Of a stretch of DNA of 64,000 nt, positions 55,121-64,000 are shown piece by piece. A program made the translations under genes and the position numbers. Numbering within the stretch: position 1 is the first letter of the stretch; the number at the start of each line of letters is the position of its first letter. Source of the stretch: Turneriella sp. (GTDB lineage Bacteria; Spirochaetota; Leptospiria; Turneriellales; Turneriellaceae); contig CBDIID010000003.1 in NCBI GenBank assembly GCA_965279515.1, positions 576,001 through 640,000 of the forward strand, written 5' to 3'. The notes below the pieces were generated by a model, which saw only the letters and a program-made list of their open reading frames with translations, was not told where the DNA came from and ran no database searches.

Positions 55121-56038
55121 TCAGATTTTTGCGGCGCGCGCCGCTAAGCCCCGTGCGACGCGGCTGGTCTCCGCATCGTTGCAGAGCGCCAGGCTTAATT
55201 CCCAAAGCCTGTCCTGGGCCGCGCGATCCAGGATATCCGCGTTTTCCTTTATCTCGCTATAAGCATGCTTTTTCCAGGTGAACAGCTTACCGGATTTCTC
55301 CAGGCTGTTGTTCTGCGCTTCGAGAAATAACGGCGCCATTTCTCTGCCGCAGTCTTCAATGGAAATAAACGTTCCGAAAAATTTCATGAGCCGGGCCATG
55401 AATTTCATGCCTTTCGGGATGATATTCAGCTGATTCGTCCAGACGGTCTTGTGAATATGGTAACTAATGAAGGCCGGCGGCTTTTGCAACGGTGCGTACA
55501 ATGCATGCAGCTTGTGCATCAGCATGCGCTTGGCGGCCATGCCCTGAAAGATTCCCCGCTCAAAGTTCCATTTCTTTTGCAACTGGAGGTCATCCCAAAA
55601 GATCTGCCCGTAGTTTGTGGCGTTGAAAATAATACGCCCCCCGGTTGTCGAACTTTCCAGTAAGGGCAAGAGGTTGAGCGCCAGCATGAACTGCGAGAGG
55701 TAGTTCACCTGAAAATGCGCATCCATACCATCTTCGGTCTCGATGCGGCGCGCCGCATAGCCGAGCCCCGCATTAATGAAGAGGGCGTCGAGAGACTGAT
55801 GTTTTTTGCGCAGCTCGCCGACCGCAGCCCTGACATCGCTGAGTTTCATGAGGTCGCATACGATGAGGGATGTTCTCGTGTTCCCGGTGCCGCTTTCGAT
55901 TTCGCGGAGTACCGTTTCGCCCAGGGTTTTTGACCGGCAGAGCAGGATCAGCTCATGGCTGTGCATCTCGGCGGCGGCGAGAATTTTGGCCACTCCCTTA
56001 CCCATGCCGTTGCTCGCACCCGTGATCAGGATCTTCAT
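55121..56038 (-). CDS. Short-chain dehydrogenase/reductase
   Basis: ITGASNGMG, INAG, FQVNYL; canonical YxxxK not evident. Confidence 0.85.
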   Translation of the reverse strand: MKILITGASNGMGKGVAKILAAAEMHSHELILLCRSKTLGETVLREIESGTGNTRTSLIVCDLMKLSDVRAAVGELRKKHQSLDALFINAGLGYAARRIETEDGMDAHFQVNYLSQFMLALNLLPLLESSTTGGRIIFNATNYGQIFWDDLQLQKKWNFERGIFQGMAAKRMLMHKLHALYAPLQKPPAFISYHIHKTVWTNQLNIIPKGMKFMARLMKFFGTFISIEDCGREMAPLFLEAQNNSLEKSGKLFTWKKHAYSEIKENADILDRAAQDRLWELSLALCNDAETSRVARGLAARAAKI

Positions 56039-56250
56039 AGATTATTCGGTCGATAAATCTTTTATACTCTGGCAAGAGCAAAACACAGTCGTATGAAAGT
56101 CCCGGCGTGATAAGGGTATTTCGGCGGTGGAGTATTCCCTAGGCGACTGCGGCGTGGCCCGGCACATGCCCCCTCGCGTTAGCCGAACCCTGGCCTGATC
56201 CGTCGCTGGAAATAAAAAACAGCAGGAAAAGTGAAATTGTTCCCACATAG

Positions 56251-56312
56251 AAAAAAAAGGCCGGCAAAGCCGGCCCCGGTCGTGCGTCCCGAGGGGAACC
56301 CGCCAGTGAACC
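56251..56312 (-). mobile_element. att-like site 1 (tRNA-3'-like core + terminator)
   Basis: A8-GGCCGGCAAAGCCGGCC hairpin; TGCGTCCC at 56283; GAACC 17 nt later. Confidence 0.65.
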
Positions 56313-56392
56313 TGAATGGGAGGTGGAGGTGCCGCTATAAAGGCAGATGCGATTTTTGTTGATTTTTTGATCCCATTTAGCCCATTGAGCGT

Positions 56393-56596
56393 ATGTCAGC
56401 TAAGGCCGAGCTAGTATCCTATTTAGAAACCTTGCCGGACGAACTTACGACAGCCGATCTATTGTACGAAACCTATTTCTTTCACGGTGTTAAATCCGGC
56501 TTAAATGACATCGAAAACGAAAAGACCCAGTCACATGATGAAGTCATACGGAGACATGAAGCGTGGCGAAAATCTCGTGGTCTGACTTCGCCTTAA
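56393..56596 (+). CDS. Putative antitoxin, copy 1
   Basis: 67 aa, acidic, GL.DIE.....SHDEV motif, overlaps the toxin gene. Confidence 0.8.
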   Translation: MSAKAELVSYLETLPDELTTADLLYETYFFHGVKSGLNDIENEKTQSHDEVIRRHEAWRKSRGLTSP

Positions 56597-56880
56597 ATCA
56601 TCTGGAAGAAATCCGCGACGACCTTGCCCGGTATTCTCTTCAGGCAGCAGATCGCACCTATTCGGGTATTGTGGAACATGTCGGCCTCTTAAGTGCGAAT
56701 CCTTTGCTCGGTAGAACAGTTCCTGAATTTCCCGCAAGCCCCTTGCAAGAAATTATTCATGATGATTATCGCATCGTTTATAGAACCGACGCTGACATGG
56801 TCAGAGTTGTTTTTATCGCTCACGGCAAACGCGATCTGAGGAAGTTTCTCAGGATGATGATCGATACACAGAACAATTGA
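56563..56880 (+). CDS. RelE/ParE family toxin, copy 1
   Basis: ISWSDFA..HLEEI, P.LGR.VPE, YRIVYR, IAHGKRD. Confidence 0.9.
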   Translation: MAKISWSDFALNHLEEIRDDLARYSLQAADRTYSGIVEHVGLLSANPLLGRTVPEFPASPLQEIIHDDYRIVYRTDADMVRVVFIAHGKRDLRKFLRMMIDTQNN

Positions 56881-56964
56881 GCGGACGAATGGCTAAACTT
56901 TGCTTGAGATGAACTCTGGTTCGATTCCCCGACGGGGTCAGTGACTTATTGACCTAAAACAATA

Positions 56965-57046
56965 AAAAAGCCCAAAGATGAACCAATGAAATCAAGGGTT
57001 CACCTTTGGGTGAACTATGCGTCCCCTAAGGAATGCCGTTCGAACC
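56965..57046 (-). mobile_element. att-like site 2 (tRNA-3'-like core + terminator)
   Basis: A-run, CCCAAAG.TGAACC/GGTTCA.CTTTGGG hairpin; TGCGTCCC at 57018; GAACC 16 nt later. Confidence 0.65.
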
Positions 57047-57063
57047 GTCTTGTTTAAGTAAGG

Positions 57064-57231
57064 TTATTTACCTGTTTTCGCCTTTTTTTTAGGTTTTATT
57101 GTCCGGACAACGAAACGCGTATTTGTTTGTTTCGCCAGTTTGCGTGCATAGGCTGTCGCCTCGCGAAGGGATTTATTGATAGCCACATTTTCCGGGCTCA
57201 AGGGCTTTGATTTAAGTGCTTTTGCTTTCAT
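57064..57231 (-). CDS. Small basic partner protein of the zeta-like ATPase
   Basis: 55-aa ORF (MKAKALKSKPLS...) overlapping the ATPase 3' end. Confidence 0.65.
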   Translation of the reverse strand: MKAKALKSKPLSPENVAINKSLREATAYARKLAKQTNTRFVVRTIKPKKKAKTGK

Positions 57232-57733
57232 GATCACTCGTTTCCAGTAAACGCATTGGAGCAGGACTACTGTCATATATCTTCCATGAGTCGGCAAGTT
57301 TTTTATAACTCGGCAGGTTTTCCAAGCCACGAATAAACCGCCTGCGAATAACATCGGCAGGAATATTGTGACCGCCTTGTTTGACCCGCTGTCTGACACG
57401 TTCGATGGCAAAATCCGCATTCGGAAGACTCAGGAAAATTATCTCCACGTGATAACCTTTCTTCTTCCAGCTATCGATCCGCCGTAGGTAATTCTTTGCT
57501 GACAATGTTGTCTCAAAAGCAAAGCTCACCTTTTGCTCCGCCAAATGGCTCATCTGCTTGAGTAATATACGTCCCGCTTCGACTGCAGCAAGCTCCGGCT
57601 TTAAAGGGGCAATACCTGAAGCCAAAATATCAGCATTCAGGTAATGCTTTATGTCCGGATAGTTCTTGAGAAAGAATTTTGCAAACGTCGTCTTGCCTGC
57701 CCCGTTTGGTCCCGCAATGATGAAGACCTTCAT
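57212..57733 (-). CDS. Zeta-toxin-like P-loop kinase/ATPase (COG4185 type)
   Basis: IAGPNGAGKTT, NAD, FETTLS, RV..RV..GGH.IP. Confidence 0.88.
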   Translation of the reverse strand: MKVFIIAGPNGAGKTTFAKFFLKNYPDIKHYLNADILASGIAPLKPELAAVEAGRILLKQMSHLAEQKVSFAFETTLSAKNYLRRIDSWKKKGYHVEIIFLSLPNADFAIERVRQRVKQGGHNIPADVIRRRFIRGLENLPSYKKLADSWKIYDSSPAPMRLLETSDHESKST

Positions 57734-57773
57734 TGTGCCCAGAAGGTCAGGACTACAACTTTACATTGGCAAC

Positions 57774-57837
57774 AAAAAAAAAAGGCCGGCAAAGCCGGCC
57801 CCGATCGTGCGTCCCGTGGGGAACCCGCCGGTGAACC
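57774..57837 (-). mobile_element. att-like site 3
   Basis: A10-GGCCGGCAAAGCCGGCC hairpin; TGCGTCCC at 57808; GAACC 17 nt later. Confidence 0.65.
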
Positions 57838-57917
57838 TGTGTGGGAGGTGGAGGTGCCGCTATAAAGGCAGATGCGATTTTTGTTGATTTTTTGATCCCA
57901 TTTAGCCCATTGAGCGT

Positions 57918-58121
57918 ATGTCAGCTAAGGCCGAGCTAGTATCCTATTTAGAAACCTTGCCGGACGAACTTACGACAGCCGATCTATTGTACGAAACCTA
58001 TTTCTTTCACGGTGTTAAATCCGGCTTAAATGACATCGAAAACGAAAAGACCCAGTCACATGATGAAGTCATACGGAGACATGAAGCGTGGCGAAAATCT
58101 CGTGGTCTGACTTCGCCTTAA
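57918..58121 (+). CDS. Putative antitoxin, copy 2
   Basis: Protein identical to copy 1. Confidence 0.8.
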   Translation: MSAKAELVSYLETLPDELTTADLLYETYFFHGVKSGLNDIENEKTQSHDEVIRRHEAWRKSRGLTSP

Positions 58122-58405
58122 ATCATCTGGAAGAAATCCGCGACGACCTTGCCCGGTATTCTCTTCAGGCAGCAGATCGCACCTATTCGGGTATTGTGGA
58201 ACATGTCGGCCTCTTAAGTGCGAATCCTTTGCTAGGTAGAACAGTTCCTGAATTTCCCGCAAGCCCCTTGCAAGAAATTATTCATGATGATTATCGCATC
58301 GTTTATAGAACCGACGCTGACATGGTCAGAGTTGTTTTTATCGCTCACGGCAAACGCGATCTGAGGAAGTTTCTCAGGATGATGATCGATACACAGAACA
58401 ATTGA
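58088..58405 (+). CDS. RelE/ParE family toxin, copy 2
   Basis: Protein identical to copy 1; one synonymous change (CTC/CTA). Confidence 0.9.
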   Translation: MAKISWSDFALNHLEEIRDDLARYSLQAADRTYSGIVEHVGLLSANPLLGRTVPEFPASPLQEIIHDDYRIVYRTDADMVRVVFIAHGKRDLRKFLRMMIDTQNN

Positions 58406-58489
58406 GCGGACGAATGGCTAAACTTTGCTTGAGATGAACTCTGGTTCGATTCCCCGACGGGGTCAGTGACTTATTGACCTAAAACAATA

Positions 58490-58572
58490 AAAAAGCCCAA
58501 AGATGAACCAATGAAATCAAGGGTTCACCTTTGGGTCTCCTATGCGTCCCGTGAGGCACCCATCGGTGAACC
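58490..58572 (-). mobile_element. att-like site 4
   Basis: Same hairpin as site 2; TGCGTCCC at 58543; GAACC 17 nt later. Confidence 0.65.
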
Positions 58573-58845
58573 TGAGTGGCAGATTGAGGTGCCGCTCGCG
58601 TGATGCAGCTAATTTGGAAGCCGACAACTTCATTTTTATCTGACCCCAGAAATGGATGGACTCCCGTTTGTTGAGTCAGCCTACGCCGGGGCATACGTTT
58701 ACCTAATACTGACTCAAAATAGTCTAACCCTACTCATATCGGCCCCTACAGGTAATAGAAGCATAACTTCCCGGTTTGTTAACGTAAGAAATCATATGTT
58801 GCCCCTTAAGGTAATCTTGAATCAGACCGGAAATATGTTGCCACT

Positions 58846-61800
58846 TTGAGAGATAAACTACTGCCTGACCGCCGCTTGCAAAATATAAGTCGCCATATCA
58901 TTATTCCACGCTTGCGCTTTGTTGCGAAGTGGGTTGCGTTTTTTACCTTAACATCCGGGTATTGGCCTTTGTTCAGCGCGGTCGACATTAATGAGTCGAC
59001 CACTTCCGTAGACATACACCCTGAGATATTCGTCGCCGAAGACGCGGCGAAGAGATTGTCAATCGCAGATGTGCTGGCCGGCAAGCTGGATTTTCACTTG
59101 ATTCAAGGCCAGACTGTAGCCCCAGGATTTACCAAAAGCGCGTACTGGGTAAAGTTTCCGTACAGCCTCACGGCGCTAAAACAATGGATTCTCGAGCTTG
59201 AATGGCCGCACCTTGAATACCTGGACTTATACATATATGACGGCCAAACACAAATTAAGAGCCGAATGAGTGGTTACATGCGCGCCCCTTCGGCTCGCGA
59301 CTATCTGAATCGAAATTTCATCTTTGACCTACCTAAGACAGACGGAAAAAGGTTCGATGTTTACATTCGCTTCGAATGCCAGGTGCCGCTGATCGTCCCC
59401 ATTGCAATAAGAACGCTCGGCGACACCTTTATCAAGAATGCTGCTGAAAAAATGTTTTATGGATTTGTATTCGGTGTTATCGGGATTATGCTTTTGTATA
59501 ATTTTTTTCTTTTCTTGACCTTGCGCGACATCAATTATCTTAATTATGTTTTCTTTTCGCTCTGTTTCGCCGGTTACAGTGTTGCCGTGAGCGGCTATCT
59601 TCGGGAATTTTTACCCGATTATCCCCGAGTAAATCTCTACGGTGTACCTGCGGTGGTGTCATTGGTGTGGCTCAGCAATTACTGGCTTGTCCGTACGTTC
59701 CTGGAATTGAAGAGTCGTAGCAAAACACTCTACTGGATTTATACGGCAGGCATCCTGATTTCTCTTTTCGGTTTTCTTCCTGCAAGCTTTATCTATCCAT
59801 TTCACACCGACATACTGCTGGATTTTCATTCATTGATTTCAGGGCTATTACTCCTAATCTCTTCGGGGTATGTCTGGCTGCGCGGCCACAGGGCCGCTCG
59901 TTATATGTTCTTGGCTTTCATCTCCTGGATCAGCGGCATGATTTTGTTGCTGGCGCGCAATTGGGGGCTTCTACCGCACAATTTTTTTACCACGCATGCG
60001 CTCCAAATAGGTTCGTTGCTCGAAATGTCGTTATTCTCACTCGCCCTCGCCGATCGCATTAATATCATCAAAGCGGAACGGGAACAAGCGCAACGTGGCG
60101 CGCTGGAGAGCGAAAAGAAAGCAGTTGAAAGCCTGAAGAAAGCGGAGGCAATCAAGGATACTTTTCTAGCGCACACGTCTCATGAATTGCGGACCCCTCT
60201 ACAGGGTATTATGGGCCTAACGGAAACAATTTTAGCTCAGACCGGCGATGTCACAATGCGCGAAAACGCGGACCTAATCATGCAAAGCGCTCGCCGCTTA
60301 TCGAATCTGATCAACGATATTCTTGACTATTCACGCATGAAAGAGCACGACATCATGCTCAATCGGGCCGATCTAGACCTTGGGCTACAAGTCAATAAAG
60401 TTATGCGAAGCCTCGAATTTGCGTCCAGGAGTAAAGGGGTTCCAATCTTCAACAACATTCGCACTGGTACCGTCTTCGTGAGTGCGGACGAACAGCGGTT
60501 ACAGCAAATTTTGTTCAATCTGATTGGGAATGCTCTGAAGTTTACGACAATCGGCTCTGTCAGTATAGAGGCAATGGAAGAGAGCGGGCAGGTTTCAATC
60601 CACATACGCGACACGGGTCGAGGAATTCCAGCCCCGAAAATCGAAGGAATATTCCAAAGGTTTGGTCGAGTCGACGATAACAATACCGACGGCACGGGGC
60701 TTGGTCTTACGATCACGAAAAGCCTGGTAGAACTCCACGGTGGAAGGATCCACGTCGAATCCATAGTAGATCGCGGCTCAACCTTTACGTTCAGTTTACG
60801 TTCGGCGCAAAGTTGCGGAGAACTGGCACCATCAGCAGAAATTCAAGCTGCAAATGCCACCGTAAGACAGGTAGCGATAAAATCGAAATACGTGCTCATC
60901 GTCGACGACGATCCTTTTATTTTGCGGAGTACTTCAGAACATCTGCGTCGCCGCGGCTTCGAGGTGGCTACCGCGCACGACGGTGCCTCGGCGCGTAGTC
61001 ATTTATTAGAAGGGGAAATCCCCCCCATACTTGTGGTATTAGATCTAATGTTGCCCGACGTTTCGGGTATTCAACTCTGTCGCGAATTTCGGGAAAAATA
61101 CGCCGCGAAAGACTTGCCGATTCTAATGCTGACAGCGCGCACTGAATTTAGGGATTTTCTTAGCGCAGCAAACGCGGGCGCAAACGATTATCTGACCAAA
61201 CCATTTGAAACTGCCGACTTGTTTCTGCGGATCGATAATCTTCTGACGCTGGCTACATTGCGCAGAGACCTGGAGACAACGGAAAGCCAGTATCTACGAC
61301 GGGTTTATGAAGACATGCACGACCATCTCGGCAGCTTGCTGACTGATATTTCGGTAATGACTGGTCAGCTACGCGAGGGCGAACATTTCGATTCGGCCGT
61401 CGTTCGGGAATTACAAAAGCAGAGCGCCTACGCGCTGCGAATTCTGCGCGAGCGTCTGCAAGCAATGGCCGATCAGGCCGAGCTGACGAAAGATTTTTTC
61501 GGCAGCCTAAACGCACAACTGTTGAGGCGGTACATAAACGCCGGGCGAACCTTGCGCTTCACCATTGAAAAAGAAGTATCGCCTCAGCTTATGCGCGAGG
61601 AAAATATGCTACTGCGCAGGGAGATCTATTTGCTCGTCAGCGAAATTGCCACGAATGACCTTAAATACGGTGTGAACGAGGCCGTTTGGTCGTGGTGGTG
61701 CGAGTCCGCGTTGCTTTGCCTAAAAATTACGACGCATAGCAATTATAACCCGACGATTCAAAAAAGAGGATTGGGTACGGCCAGCATCGCGAACCGCATG

Positions 61801-61905
61801 GCGGCGGTGGGTGGAAAGATTAGCTACGAATTGCGGGAAACTCTGCTCGACATAAGCGTTGAATTCCCCATGATTGCTCAGGAAACTTCATCGTTCCCTA
61901 TCTAA
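58846..61905 (+). CDS. Hybrid sensor kinase: 7TMR-DISM + HisKA/HATPase + REC + second HisKA_3-like module
   Basis: 7 TM helices with FSLALADR, SHELRTPL, NLIGNALKFT, GTGLGL, VDDD/DLMLP/KPF, EDMHDHLG; start uncertain. Confidence 0.9.
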   Translation: MRDKLLPDRRLQNISRHIIIPRLRFVAKWVAFFTLTSGYWPLFSAVDINESTTSVDIHPEIFVAEDAAKRLSIADVLAGKLDFHLIQGQTVAPGFTKSAYWVKFPYSLTALKQWILELEWPHLEYLDLYIYDGQTQIKSRMSGYMRAPSARDYLNRNFIFDLPKTDGKRFDVYIRFECQVPLIVPIAIRTLGDTFIKNAAEKMFYGFVFGVIGIMLLYNFFLFLTLRDINYLNYVFFSLCFAGYSVAVSGYLREFLPDYPRVNLYGVPAVVSLVWLSNYWLVRTFLELKSRSKTLYWIYTAGILISLFGFLPASFIYPFHTDILLDFHSLISGLLLLISSGYVWLRGHRAARYMFLAFISWISGMILLLARNWGLLPHNFFTTHALQIGSLLEMSLFSLALADRINIIKAEREQAQRGALESEKKAVESLKKAEAIKDTFLAHTSHELRTPLQGIMGLTETILAQTGDVTMRENADLIMQSARRLSNLINDILDYSRMKEHDIMLNRADLDLGLQVNKVMRSLEFASRSKGVPIFNNIRTGTVFVSADEQRLQQILFNLIGNALKFTTIGSVSIEAMEESGQVSIHIRDTGRGIPAPKIEGIFQRFGRVDDNNTDGTGLGLTITKSLVELHGGRIHVESIVDRGSTFTFSLRSAQSCGELAPSAEIQAANATVRQVAIKSKYVLIVDDDPFILRSTSEHLRRRGFEVATAHDGASARSHLLEGEIPPILVVLDLMLPDVSGIQLCREFREKYAAKDLPILMLTARTEFRDFLSAANAGANDYLTKPFETADLFLRIDNLLTLATLRRDLETTESQYLRRVYEDMHDHLGSLLTDISVMTGQLREGEHFDSAVVRELQKQSAYALRILRERLQAMADQAELTKDFFGSLNAQLLRRYINAGRTLRFTIEKEVSPQLMREENMLLRREIYLLVSEIATNDLKYGVNEAVWSWWCESALLCLKITTHSNYNPTIQKRGLGTASIANRMAAVGGKISYELRETLLDISVEFPMIAQETSSFPI

Positions 61906-61909
61906 CCAG

Positions 61910-62530
61910 CTATAGATTAAACTTTTTCATCAACTGAATGCGCGAATGTACGCCGAATTTCTTGTAGATATGCTTGATGTGCGTCCGCACGGTATCGAAC
62001 GTAATGCCGAGTTTGTGAGCCACCTGTGTCGCACTCGCCCCGGTCGATAGTTCTTCCAGTATGTCTCTTTCGCGGGGCGTCAATCCATCGAGCTCGGTAT
62101 TACGTACGGGCGCGCCTTGTTTCATCACGCGGAAAATTCGCAGGGCAATGACCGGCGATATGGAACCTTTGCCTTCCGCTACATCTTTGACAGCTTTGCC
62201 CAACTCGCCGACTTCAGATTTGGCAATATAGCCGACCGCCCCGGCGGAAAGCCCGTCGAGTATGCTGGATTCATCCGCCTGATTGGTCAAGATCATGCAA
62301 TTGAGGTCAGGTATTTGACCCATGATTTCATAGATGAGCTTTATGCCCTCGGGTTTCGGCAGATTCAAATCGACAATCAGGACATCGAGGTCCCGTACGA
62401 CACCCAGTTGCTGCCGCAGCTTCTCGGCGTCCTGCCACGTAAAGACTTCGCTGCCAGGCATTTGATCCTTTAAAATTTGCGTCACCTGCTTTAGAAATTT
62501 CCCGTCGTCATCAATTATTCCGATACGCAT
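61910..62530 (-). CDS. NarL/LuxR family response regulator
   Basis: IIDDD, DLNLP, GYIAK, LTPRE...TVRTHIKHIYKK. Confidence 0.92.
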   Translation of the reverse strand: MRIGIIDDDGKFLKQVTQILKDQMPGSEVFTWQDAEKLRQQLGVVRDLDVLIVDLNLPKPEGIKLIYEIMGQIPDLNCMILTNQADESSILDGLSAGAVGYIAKSEVGELGKAVKDVAEGKGSISPVIALRIFRVMKQGAPVRNTELDGLTPRERDILEELSTGASATQVAHKLGITFDTVRTHIKHIYKKFGVHSRIQLMKKFNL

Positions 62531-62614
62531 ACTTTTCCACAAACCTTGGCACACTTCGCAGATCTTCTCTAATCTGGCATGTCATTAATTACCACGTGGC
62601 AGGGGTTCTGTCCA

Positions 62615-62666
62615 TACCCCAGATGGGGGAGAAGTGGCGCCCAGTGGACCTCGCCCAATTGGGGGA
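62615..62666. promoter_or_regulatory. Two 16-bp pseudo-palindromic boxes (candidate response-regulator sites)
   Basis: TACCCCAGATGGGGGA at 62615 and TCGCCCAATTGGGGGA at 62651. Confidence 0.5.
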
Positions 62667-62737
62667 TTTACTTCGTTCTAAAATTAACTTAGGCATAGAC
62701 GGTGCAGTAAAATTTATGAACTATCAGGAGTCCGAGT

Positions 62738-64000
62738 ATGCAGAGAACACTCTTAATAATTTTGATCACTATTTTTCTTGTCACATGCGGAAAAACTGGC
62801 AACGAGAATACAGCAGCAGGTACAACGGGACCGGATACCACACCGCCAACGTTAGTCTCTTCAATCCCTGCGAACACCGCAACGGGCGTGGCTCCGTGCA
62901 GCGGCAACCCGTGCATCGGTAAAATTACACTCTCGTTCAGCGAGAGCATGGATACGACGTTTTCTCAGACTTTAACTACCGAGATAAGTAATAATAATGC
63001 CGGCACGACCTATGCAAGCGCACCGAACAATGGCACAACGTTTACCTGGAGTACGACCACATTTAGCAACGACACACTCACGATCAACATTAGCTGGCAC
63101 TGGTTTCCTGAGAATTCGAAAATCCGCTACACTGTCACGGCTGCGGGGATCAAAGATTTGGCAGGCAATGTGATTGGGGCTGATGTGCAGCGGACCTTCA
63201 CAACAACCGCACCACGACCAGGATTTGCCATCGCCGATACGGGCCAAACGCAATGCAGCTCGGGTGCTTCGGGCAACAACACCATGGCAGCCTGTCCGCA
63301 AACAATTACAGGCCAAGACGGAAATTCTGTCGATAAACCCGTGGCACGCAGCTTTACGGGCCCCACGCAGTATGGTGTCACGGGGAACTACACCACTACT
63401 GACAATGTTACCGGACTTGTTTGGGCTTCGTGCAGCGAAGGCCTTTCGGGCGCGACCTGCGCCACAGGCACGGCATCGACGCTGGTATGGACTAACGCAA
63501 TCAACCAATGCGCGGCGCTGAATGCAGCCAACTCCGGTGTCGGTTATGCAGGTAAGACAACATGGCGGCTACCGACTTCAATGGAGTTGGAGTCAATACC
63601 CAATTTGGGAACCTCGTCGCCCGCAATCGACGTGGCATTTTTTCCGGGGACAGTTTCCTCGACTTATTGGTCATCAAGCACCAATGTCGCCGCCGCGGCT
63701 GATGCCTGGCATATTAACATGAGCGACGGTCGCTCTTACATTGCAACGAGTAAAACAACGAGCAACCCGGTCCGTTGCGTTGCCGGTGCTTCGGCAGGTC
63801 CGGGCACAGTGCCTGCTTATACTGACAATGCCGATGGCACCGTGACCGATGCCCGGATAAGCCTGCGCTGGCAAAAGTGCAGTAACGGGCTCAGCGGGAT
63901 TTCTTGCGGTACTGGCACGGCGACGCAAAGCACTTGGGTGAATGCGATTGCCTATTGTCAGGGTCTAAGCCTCGCAAGCAAAACATGGAGACTTCCTTCA
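62738..64000 (+). CDS. Lipoprotein with Ig-like (Big_5) and tandem DUF1566/Lcl domains, runs off the right edge
   Basis: Absent from the ORF track; hand translation gives MQRTLLIILITIFLVTC lipobox, DTTPP, F.ESMD, KDLAGN, DTGQ, D.VTGLVW, WRLPT..EL, YWSSS, VRCV, and a second DN.DGTV.D...L.WQKC..WRLP. Confidence 0.88.
   Translation, partial: MQRTLLIILITIFLVTCGKTGNENTAAGTTGPDTTPPTLVSSIPANTATGVAPCSGNPCIGKITLSFSESMDTTFSQTLTTEISNNNAGTTYASAPNNGTTFTWSTTTFSNDTLTINISWHWFPENSKIRYTVTAAGIKDLAGNVIGADVQRTFTTTAPRPGFAIADTGQTQCSSGASGNNTMAACPQTITGQDGNSVDKPVARSFTGPTQYGVTGNYTTTDNVTGLVWASCSEGLSGATCATGTASTLVWTNAINQCAALNAANSGVGYAGKTTWRLPTSMELESIPNLGTSSPAIDVAFFPGTVSSTYWSSSTNVAAAADAWHINMSDGRSYIATSKTTSNPVRCVAGASAGPGTVPAYTDNADGTVTDARISLRWQKCSNGLSGISCGTGTATQSTWVNAIAYCQGLSLASKTWRLPS

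Follow-up and report, generated by a model that had tools for sequence, protein, structure and literature searches.

The four sites and the units between them

Four copies of an 8-bp core, TGCGTCCC, divide a short stretch of the Turneriella sp. genome G000 into three small units, each holding the gene of a toxin-like protein with a small open reading frame (ORF). The window analysed here is the whole 64,000-nt stretch C3:576001-640000, and site coordinates are positions in this window. The cores lie on the plus strand at 56283, 57018, 57808 and 58543, so that the units measure 735, 790 and 735 bp from core to core. The four sites are probably attachment sites of a large serine recombinase (LSR), whose gene lies beyond the window beside the only tRNA-Glu gene of the genome.

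The bare 8-mer is not significantly enriched, with 4 copies against 2.8 expected and 34 of 100 shuffles reaching 4. The extended pattern TGCGTCCC-N16/17-GAACC matches the window 4 times, at these same positions, against 0.01 expected, and none of 100 shuffles reaches 4. The sequences flanking the cores, read from 60 nt on either side of each, fall into two kinds per side: left arms H and T, and right arms R and tRNA'. Written as left arm/right arm, site 1 is H/R, site 2 is T/tRNA', site 3 is H/R and site 4 is T/R; the identity common to all of them is limited to the 8 bp of the core. The features of the region are as follows.

56251..56282, minus strand: H arm of site 1 (A-run, GGCCGGCAAAGCCGGCC hairpin, CCGGTCG), terminator-like, on the putative host-type (B') side; it adjoins tRNA-Glu in G005 and G011
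56283..56290, plus strand: core 1, TGCGTCCC; the final 8 nt of the tRNA-Glu 3' end are its reverse complement
56291..56336, plus strand: R arm of ParE copy A, a putative P'-type half-site with a conserved extension
56393..56596, plus strand: 67-aa ORF, presumed antitoxin, upstream of and overlapping ParE; no family match
56563..56880, plus strand: ParE-family toxin, copy A (PF05016, E = 1.2e-13)
56918..57017, plus strand: T-end module, copy A, with a hairpin at 56970-57011 and the T arm (putative P-type) GGTTCACCTTTGGGT at 56997-57011
57018..57025, plus strand: core 2
57026..57046, plus strand: tRNA' arm, start of the zeta cassette; a degenerate copy of the tRNA-Glu acceptor and T-arm, with GAACC at the P-type distance
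57064..57240, minus strand: 58-aa ORF downstream of the zeta-like gene; no family match; a homologous ORF is present in the G009 cassette
57212..57733, minus strand: zeta-toxin-like P-loop kinase (PF06414, E = 5.3e-13)
57776..57807, minus strand: H arm of site 3, where the zeta cassette ends in a terminator-like sequence
57808..57815, plus strand: core 3
57816..57861, plus strand: R arm of ParE copy B
57918..58405, plus strand: ParE copy B, with the 67-aa ORF at 57918-58121 and ParE at 58088-58405
58443..58542, plus strand: T-end module, copy B, with the T arm at 58522-58536
58543..58550, plus strand: core 4, with the inverted-repeat midpoint, 58547, inside it
58551..58596, plus strand: R arm of the next element, E3 (~13.1 kb), which runs beyond the window
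58846..64000, no strand assigned: start of the E3 cargo (7TMR-DISM hybrid histidine kinase, LuxR-type regulator, secreted protein), accessory DNA

The four cores, the unit lengths and the separate assortment of the arms had all been described in a first-pass annotation of this DNA, and both recount and alignment bear them out. It had further assigned to each unit exactly one toxin-antitoxin (TA) module and no recombinase. The ORF list indeed contains no recombinase in any of the three units, and every unit pairs a toxin gene with a small ORF. The modules are not all different, however: 56251-57025 and 57776-58550 align over 775 bp at 98.8% identity by the repeat finder. Units 1 and 3 are thus one cassette present twice, and the window holds two cassette types, not three. 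Scans of the window for tRNA genes and RNA families returned no match, the tRNA being located beyond it.

The tRNA-Glu gene, the recombinase and the 67-kb array

The single tRNA-Glu gene of the genome (ARAGORN) occupies C3:699427-699499 on the minus strand and ends in GGGACGCA, the reverse complement of the core. A distance of 67,143 bp separates it from site 1, and the array in between consists of units of 735 bp, 790 bp, 735 bp, ~13.1 kb, ~12.8 kb and 38.9 kb. The four sites and the units between them take up only the left 2.3 kb of this 67-kb array, which also holds islands of 13-39 kb. Further copies of the arms are found only downstream of the window (BLAST of the arms against the whole genome).

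~C3:647663: T/R site, core with one base lost
~C3:655040 (L001:15030-15075): R arm without core; the core and the inner part are replaced, a decayed junction
C3:660484: T-like/R site
C3:699426: T arm and core, followed by the complete tRNA-Glu gene

Directly adjoining tRNA-Glu is the gene of a 562-aa LSR (C3:697777-699465), with matches to the Resolvase (PF00239, E = 1.8e-26), Recombinase (PF07508, E = 8.9e-22) and Zn_ribbon_recom (PF13408, E = 8.3e-11) domains. It is the sole gene with a Resolvase domain in the genome, and among solved structures it matches the SPbeta, TP901-1 and TnpX recombinases. Its N-terminus reads YLRVSTKKQ, which we take to be the catalytic-serine motif, and its reading frame is intact (a 570-aa open frame without internal stops). 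Identity to the phage collection reaches at most 26%, and the viral contig collection yielded no relatives. A recombination directionality factor was not recognised. The first-pass annotation had suggested looking to the right of the window for a minus-strand tRNA with such a 3' end and for an integrase next to it; both the tRNA and an adjacent recombinase are present, the latter being a large serine recombinase and not a tyrosine integrase.

The last codons of the LSR gene are formed by the T arm and the core, and the gene overlaps tRNA-Glu by 39 nt. Since the frame ends inside tRNA-Glu (C3:699426-699465), the last ~13 residues of the protein would differ between the integrated (T/tRNA) and the excised (T/R) state. 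The same read-through into tRNA-Glu is seen for the LSR of G007. A 33-aa remnant of an LSR C-terminus (58% identity; L002:395-493) lies in front of the C3:660484 site.

Arms and site symmetry

The H arm is composed of an A-run, the hairpin GGCCGGCAAAGCCGGCC and the sequence CCGRTCG. The T arm, GGTTCACCTTTGGGT followed by 6 nt, is the 3' half of a 14-bp hairpin with an A-run before it. At sites 1 and 3 the stem of the H hairpin measures 9 bp and, on the minus strand, leads into a U-run, and at sites 2 and 4 the 14-bp stem is followed by U6 (z = -4.3 and -5.4); the hairpins reported earlier to the left of every core are therefore real. Read on the minus strand, either left arm places a hairpin and a U-run immediately after GGGACGCA. 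On the other side, the R arm contains ACCC-N6-GAACC and then a conserved extension, and the tRNA' arm reads CTAAGGAATGCCGTTCGAACC. One left arm is common to sites 2 and 4, and a 54-nt right arm is common to sites 1, 3 and 4 at 85-93% identity.

At site 4, GGTTCACCTTTGGGT and ACCCATCGGTGAACC form 15-nt inverted repeats (58522-58536 and 58558-58572) that are 87% complementary and separated by 21 nt. Their midpoint falls on base 5 of the core, which yields a 51-bp dyad-symmetric site. The same dyad layout is present at the C3:647663 site, apart from its one lost core base, and at sites in G007 and G008.

The right arms differ in the position of their outer motif. GAACC ends 16 nt past the core in the true tRNA arm and 21-22 nt past it in the tRNA' and R arms, and in the well-preserved tRNA' arms of relatives TCGAACC is displaced outward by exactly 5 bp relative to the tRNA. 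In the LI integrase, as described in PMC3783163, the zinc-ribbon motif occupies positions 16-24 in attP and 11-19 in attB. The 5-bp shift matches this difference, so the T, R and tRNA' arms would be P-type half-sites and the tRNA arm a B-type one. The first-pass annotation had taken the arms for tRNA 3' ends (GGTTC...GGGACGCA); judged by their symmetry and spacing, T and R appear instead to be the two inverted half-sites of an attP-like site. By the same comparison, the tRNA' arm of site 2 would be a tRNA half-site whose outer motif has moved 5 bp outward.

Empty sites and cassette exchange in related genomes

The genomes G001-G013 belong to the same genus as G000 (Turneriella sp. / Spirochaetota metagenome-assembled genomes, MAGs), which makes 14 genus genomes with G000 included. 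The unoccupied arrangement of H arm, core and tRNA-Glu is present in G005 and G011. In G002, an endonuclease-like gene (endA), a terminator hairpin and tRNA-Glu follow one another with no cassette, and in G009 the same endA and hairpin are followed by core/tRNA' and a zeta-type cassette. Hybrid H/R and T/tRNA-Glu sites occur in both G000 and G007. The latter genome contains an independent second array, in which an LSR 52% identical to that of G000 stands beside tRNA-Glu at a T/tRNA site; a T/R site follows at 34.7 kb from T/tRNA, an H/R site after a further 24 kb, and a 630-bp cassette ends in H''/tRNA'. T/tRNA and T/R lie 4 kb apart in G008, an 86%-complete assembly in which no LSR was found. 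Across the 13 other genus genomes, the left arm beside tRNA-Glu is of H type, of T type, another hairpin or none, and this variation marks the position as a hotspot.

The cassette at the tRNA' position has been replaced among these genomes, as the first-pass annotation predicted, and three kinds of TA pair are found there: a ParE-type pair unrelated to the ParE of the window (G003, G005, G007 and G011; 629-631 bp), a zeta-type pair (G000 and G009) and a third pair (G001; 703 bp). The tRNA' arm, the first 38-41 nt of these cassettes, is ~90-95% alike across them. It is better preserved in G005, G007 and G009 than in the window, and in relatives a 15-nt piece of the tRNA end (CCCCTAGGGGACGCA) survives in it. 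Between G005, G007 and G011, identity of the ParE-type cassette amounts to 95.9-97.3%. Beyond tRNA-Lys the chromosomal flank is 79% identical between G005 and G007, while that of G011 aligns with neither. A cassette identity of 96-97% against 79% in the one alignable flank argues for horizontal movement of this cassette between species in recent time.

The T-end module is shared more widely than the ParE cassette itself. Positions 56918-57011 match, at 100% identity, the end of the 13-kb island E3 beyond the window, and this 94-nt module recurs twice in G008 and once in G007 as well as at the end of E3 in G000. Elements without a recombinase that share it are E3, two from G008 and one from G007. 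In a search of the 19 other family genomes, the interior of the window's ParE cassette did not turn up, and no intermediate forms were found.

Metagenome contigs provide additional junctions. T arm and core were found in five contigs, joined to tRNA-Glu in two and to an R arm in one; in the remaining two (L079 and L075) the 3' end of the LSR gene is joined to a tRNA' arm. L075 has the order LSR-T/tRNA'. L079 has the order LSR-T/tRNA'-zeta-X/tRNA', in which the zeta cassette is followed by a second core/tRNA' behind a different hairpin, X. The locus itself is present in four sequencing runs of one study, stored only as contigs, with no joints listed. These contigs break at repeat boundaries, and the ParE contig is about twice as deep as its neighbours, which is no more than consistent with two copies. 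Small-share metagenome runs gave 238-271-nt pieces without context.

A model for the array and its alternatives

The four sites are probably hybrid attachment sites of the LSR at the tRNA-Glu end, and the TA units recombinase-less cassettes within a 67-kb stack of islands. The region would then be the tRNA-distal end of a stack built by the LSR at the 3' end of the single tRNA-Glu gene, with the LSR gene at its tRNA-proximal end. In this model, attB would be H-core-tRNA-Glu, with H as the terminator hairpin of the tRNA, and attP would be the 51-bp T-core-R, whose 15-nt inverted half-sites have the core at their centre. Strand exchange within TGCGTCCC, presumably at GT or TC, would restore the tRNA and set the element's own hairpin and U-run (the T end) right behind it, pushing the prior terminator outward and leaving H/R at the far end of the element. 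Sites 1 and 3 (H/R) would accordingly be attR-like, site 2 would be T/tRNA', and site 4 (T/R) would be an attP-like junction between neighbours. This LSR presumably made the junctions. Of the first-pass interpretation as a whole, the tRNA, the adjoining recombinase and the cassette variation stand, whereas the type of recombinase and the nature of the arms are revised.

The 735-bp ParE unit, with an R arm, two ORFs and a T end, carries both attachment arms and no recombinase or transfer genes. With its two P-type arms, it would be a non-autonomous mini-element, present twice. The 790-bp zeta unit would represent a second cassette class, with a tRNA' arm at one end and a terminator-like arm at the other; its counterparts in relatives hold different TA pairs at that position. 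Sites 1 and 2 would result from insertion of the ParE mini-element at an H/tRNA' site, of the kind found unoccupied in G009, and sites 3 and 4 from the same mini-element at the next site, followed by the larger islands. Cassettes presumably move either as circles, with the LSR acting in trans, or together with neighbouring elements in cis, using alternative H/P' sites. Because the H/P' junctions are attR-like, excision to T/tRNA would carry off the intervening cassettes or leave them behind, and the layout of L079 fits this expectation. The TA genes may stabilise the array.

A further-reaching proposal, possible though doubtful, is that the tRNA-Glu 3' end works as a serine-recombinase capture platform, a functional analogue of an integron. 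An LSR acting in trans from a large defence island would insert sub-kb TA cassettes, swap them and shed them again, and the H/P' sites would serve as alternative excision ends through which the island picks up or leaves cassettes. Within this proposal a cassette can tentatively be described as a P-type half-site (the tRNA half-site with its motif 5 bp out), cargo and a tRNA terminator of its own.

Several observations weigh against the LSR model. The H arm has no recognisable outer motif mirroring the tRNA arm; a host-site motif ~5 bp nearer the centre is seen in the right half (the tRNA arm) and is absent from the left half (H), so that attB as proposed would be strongly asymmetric. According to the account in PMC3783163, canonical serine integrases recombine attP with attB only, and the T/R junctions, the ParE copy at H/tRNA' and the LSR element on an older T arm all need non-canonical pairs, integration of ready-made composites or homologous recombination. 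Between the two ParE copies there are 9 differences, 8 in the arms and 1 in the ~690-bp interior, a pattern not predicted by simple copy-and-reinsert. No LSR match at E <= 1e-20 was obtained in the cassette-bearing genomes G001, G003, G005, G009 and G011, the last of which is 99% complete.

Alternatively, the array could be a fossil, made up of relics of old LSR integrations, with the second ParE copy added by homologous recombination or by a 1,525-bp partial tandem duplication and nothing mobile now. The direct repeat is clean, with a period of 1,525 bp and 775 bp at 98.8% identity, and the same map would result, with no non-canonical LSR reaction, from recombination of a 1,525-bp circle of zeta and ParE units at any point of a resident ParE cassette. 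Decay is visible at C3:647663 (core minus one base), C3:655040 (coreless R arm) and C3:660395 (LSR remnant), and the contigs showed no joints. Against this stand the intact LSR frame, the two junctions of ParE copy A, both of them exact at the core, and the unoccupied H''/tRNA' site beside a homologous zeta cassette in G009. Moreover, the cassette identity of 96-97% across species against 79% in one alignable flank (G005-G007) speaks for recent transfer, and a purely fossil array is unlikely.

It is very unlikely that the locus is a classical tRNA island, in which the TGCGTCCC copies would be direct repeats left by a tyrosine integrase that duplicates the 3' end of the tRNA. The 3' ends of tRNA genes are the usual targets of tyrosine integrases, as stated in the Islander paper (PMC4383910), and the tRNA' arm of relatives does keep 15 nt of the tRNA end. 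The four Phage_integrase matches of the genome, at 1.40, 2.78, 2.93 and 4.83 Mb of C3, are however all more than 600 kb from the array; none was found by Pfam among the ORFs scanned at C3:640-700 kb, where three border-crossing and some short ORFs were left unscanned. An identity of 8 bp only, independently assorting arms and the dyad-symmetric T/R site also speak against such an island. An integron-like process, in which folded single-stranded hairpins resembling attC are recombined, would explain the strong hairpin in every left arm and the stacking of sub-kb, promoter-poor TA units at one site. It is nevertheless highly improbable: no IntI-type gene lies near the array, and the hairpins H, T and X differ in sequence, each occupying the tRNA-Glu terminator position before a U-run, while the conserved parts are half-sites of double-strand type, symmetric about the core. 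The first-pass annotation had spoken of cassette capture without attC or IntI. Neither is involved, as it said, and the likeness to integrons is a functional one only.

Relation to known systems

LSRs are known to stack elements, some of them without a recombinase, at the 3' end of one conserved gene in the staphylococcal cassette chromosome (SCC; CcrAB). The target of SCC and pseudo-SCC elements is the protein-coding rlmH gene, and the elements are kilobases long with resistance cargo, unlike the units described here. The Enterococcus cassette chromosome is a comparable LSR-stacked element, as reported in PMC6222049. The identity of at most 26% given above for the LSR of the array refers to the phage LSRs of the phage collection.

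The tandem ssrA islands of Dehalococcoides are the nearest described system. As presented in PMC3146451, these are tandem islands that follow a single-copy small-RNA gene and have copies of its 3' end as boundaries, with a ~540-aa serine recombinase at the target-proximal boundary. That paper describes a CcrB-like serine recombinase, DsiB, and 15 islands without an integration module, proposed to be cis-mobilizable. The Turneriella array differs in its tRNA-Glu target and 8-bp core, compared with a 20-bp repeat in that description, and in having a single recombinase gene, with no DsiA-like partner seen. It also differs in its sub-kb units carrying TA genes only and in that each element brings its own terminator hairpin.

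Cis-mobilizable elements (CIMEs) likewise keep attL and attR, lack integration and transfer genes and share their site, in tandem, with an autonomous element, as outlined in PMC5704250. They are described as decayed integrative and conjugative or integrative and mobilizable elements, mostly of tyrosine recombinases. The arms of the present array would instead be LSR-type half-sites, and there is no sign that the 735-bp ParE unit is a product of decay.

With the LI/A118, Bxb1 and phiC31 integrases the system shares the domain set, a ~50-bp dyad-symmetric element site, a short identity between partner sites and, in the right half, an outer motif ~5 bp nearer the centre on the host side. Those enzymes do not pair attP with attL, attR or attP, whereas the array implies such events or another route, and the host left half-site (H) is here without a matching motif.

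Chromosomal integrons also stack sub-kb cassettes with one TA module at a single capture site, and such cassettes may stabilise the array. No IntI, attI or attC is found here, and the sites would be serine-recombinase half-sites at a tRNA end. LSRs are usually described as strict attP x attB enzymes that insert within protein-coding genes, and tRNA ends are seen as belonging to tyrosine integrases. An LSR family that targets the final 8 nt of a tRNA, leaves gene and terminator restored and tolerates stacking would thus be unusual. To our knowledge, the one-TA units of 735-790 bp associated with it are the smallest non-autonomous passengers. What sets the array apart from known systems is the combination of a tRNA target with an 8-bp core, B- and P-type versions of one half-site, self-supplied terminators and sub-kb TA-only units. 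No prior description of a tRNA-Glu LSR array or of this Turneriella locus was found in the open-access texts searched.

If the sites are active, their short arms, including the B- and P-type versions of the tRNA half-site, form a test set for how half-site spacing controls the pairing of sites, a question that bears on LSRs as tools for genome engineering. The locus also shows TA modules and defence islands gathering at one hotspot in a little-studied spirochaete genus.

Cassette genes and further observations

The 67-aa ORF and the ParE gene overlap by 34 nt. In the zeta-like protein the PF06414 match covers residues 52-145 only, and the small ORF lies downstream of the gene, not upstream; the pair recurs in G009. 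No Pfam or NCBIfam match was obtained for the small ORFs of the cassettes, and neither NCBIfam nor PADLOC supplied a name for the four cassette proteins. The promoter scan detected no sigma-70-like site within 56000-58900.

Eight of the nine differences between the ParE copies lie within 35 nt of a core, and the affected stretches are 56279-56316, 56709 and 57012-57014. The 3-nt change at 57012-57014 turns the T arm of site 2 into a perfect short palindrome (GTTCACC...GGTGAAC).

The T-end module opens with GGTTCGATTCCCCGACGGGGTCA (56918-56940, 58443-58465 and L001:7563-7585), which is conserved with changes in contig L031 of G008. Its reverse complement resembles the core plus the tRNA arm at about 17/24 positions, a likeness that suggests a decayed inverted copy of a host half-site ~95 nt from the T/core junction. 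The sequence GGTTCGATTCC at 56918 was considered as a tRNA gene and rejected, as its T-stem is unpaired.

The R-arm extension, ~24 nt past the inverted repeat (TGAGTGGCAGATTGAGGTGCC and variants; 56313-56336, 57838-57861 and 58573-58596), is conserved in the window and also in G005, G007 and G008; no function was found for it. A sigma-54 promoter within the extension was rejected by eye, the spacing being off by one. The 54-nt R arm as a structured RNA or tRNA-like 3' half was likewise dropped, since its stems lack consistent covariation (8 R arms, by eye).

The defence-type genes of the 39-kb LSR island (L002:661-18745, C3:660661-678745) encode a Mokosh-like helicase, an E2/E1/JAB fusion protein, an Hma-like SNF2 helicase with a methylase and an ImmA/IrrE-HTH pair. 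Further along, the island carries Rad52-like, Gp157-like, DUF932 and sigma-70-like genes, a DDE transposase and phage-type recombination genes. In the 4.9-Mb, 99.99%-complete assembly of G000, ARAGORN reports 39 tRNA genes and no transfer-messenger RNA gene.

The 1019-aa kinase of the 13-kb element (58846-61905) has a 68% homologue, interrupted by one in-frame TAG, only in G003; all its other matches among the 14 genus genomes are at most 41% identical. In G005, the tRNA-Glu/cassette region is present twice, in L026 (C4) and L027 (C7), which may stem from a genuine duplication or from a MAG that combines two strains. In the C7 copy the tRNA is damaged and the cassette broken in frame, with an H''/R site at a distance of 13 kb.

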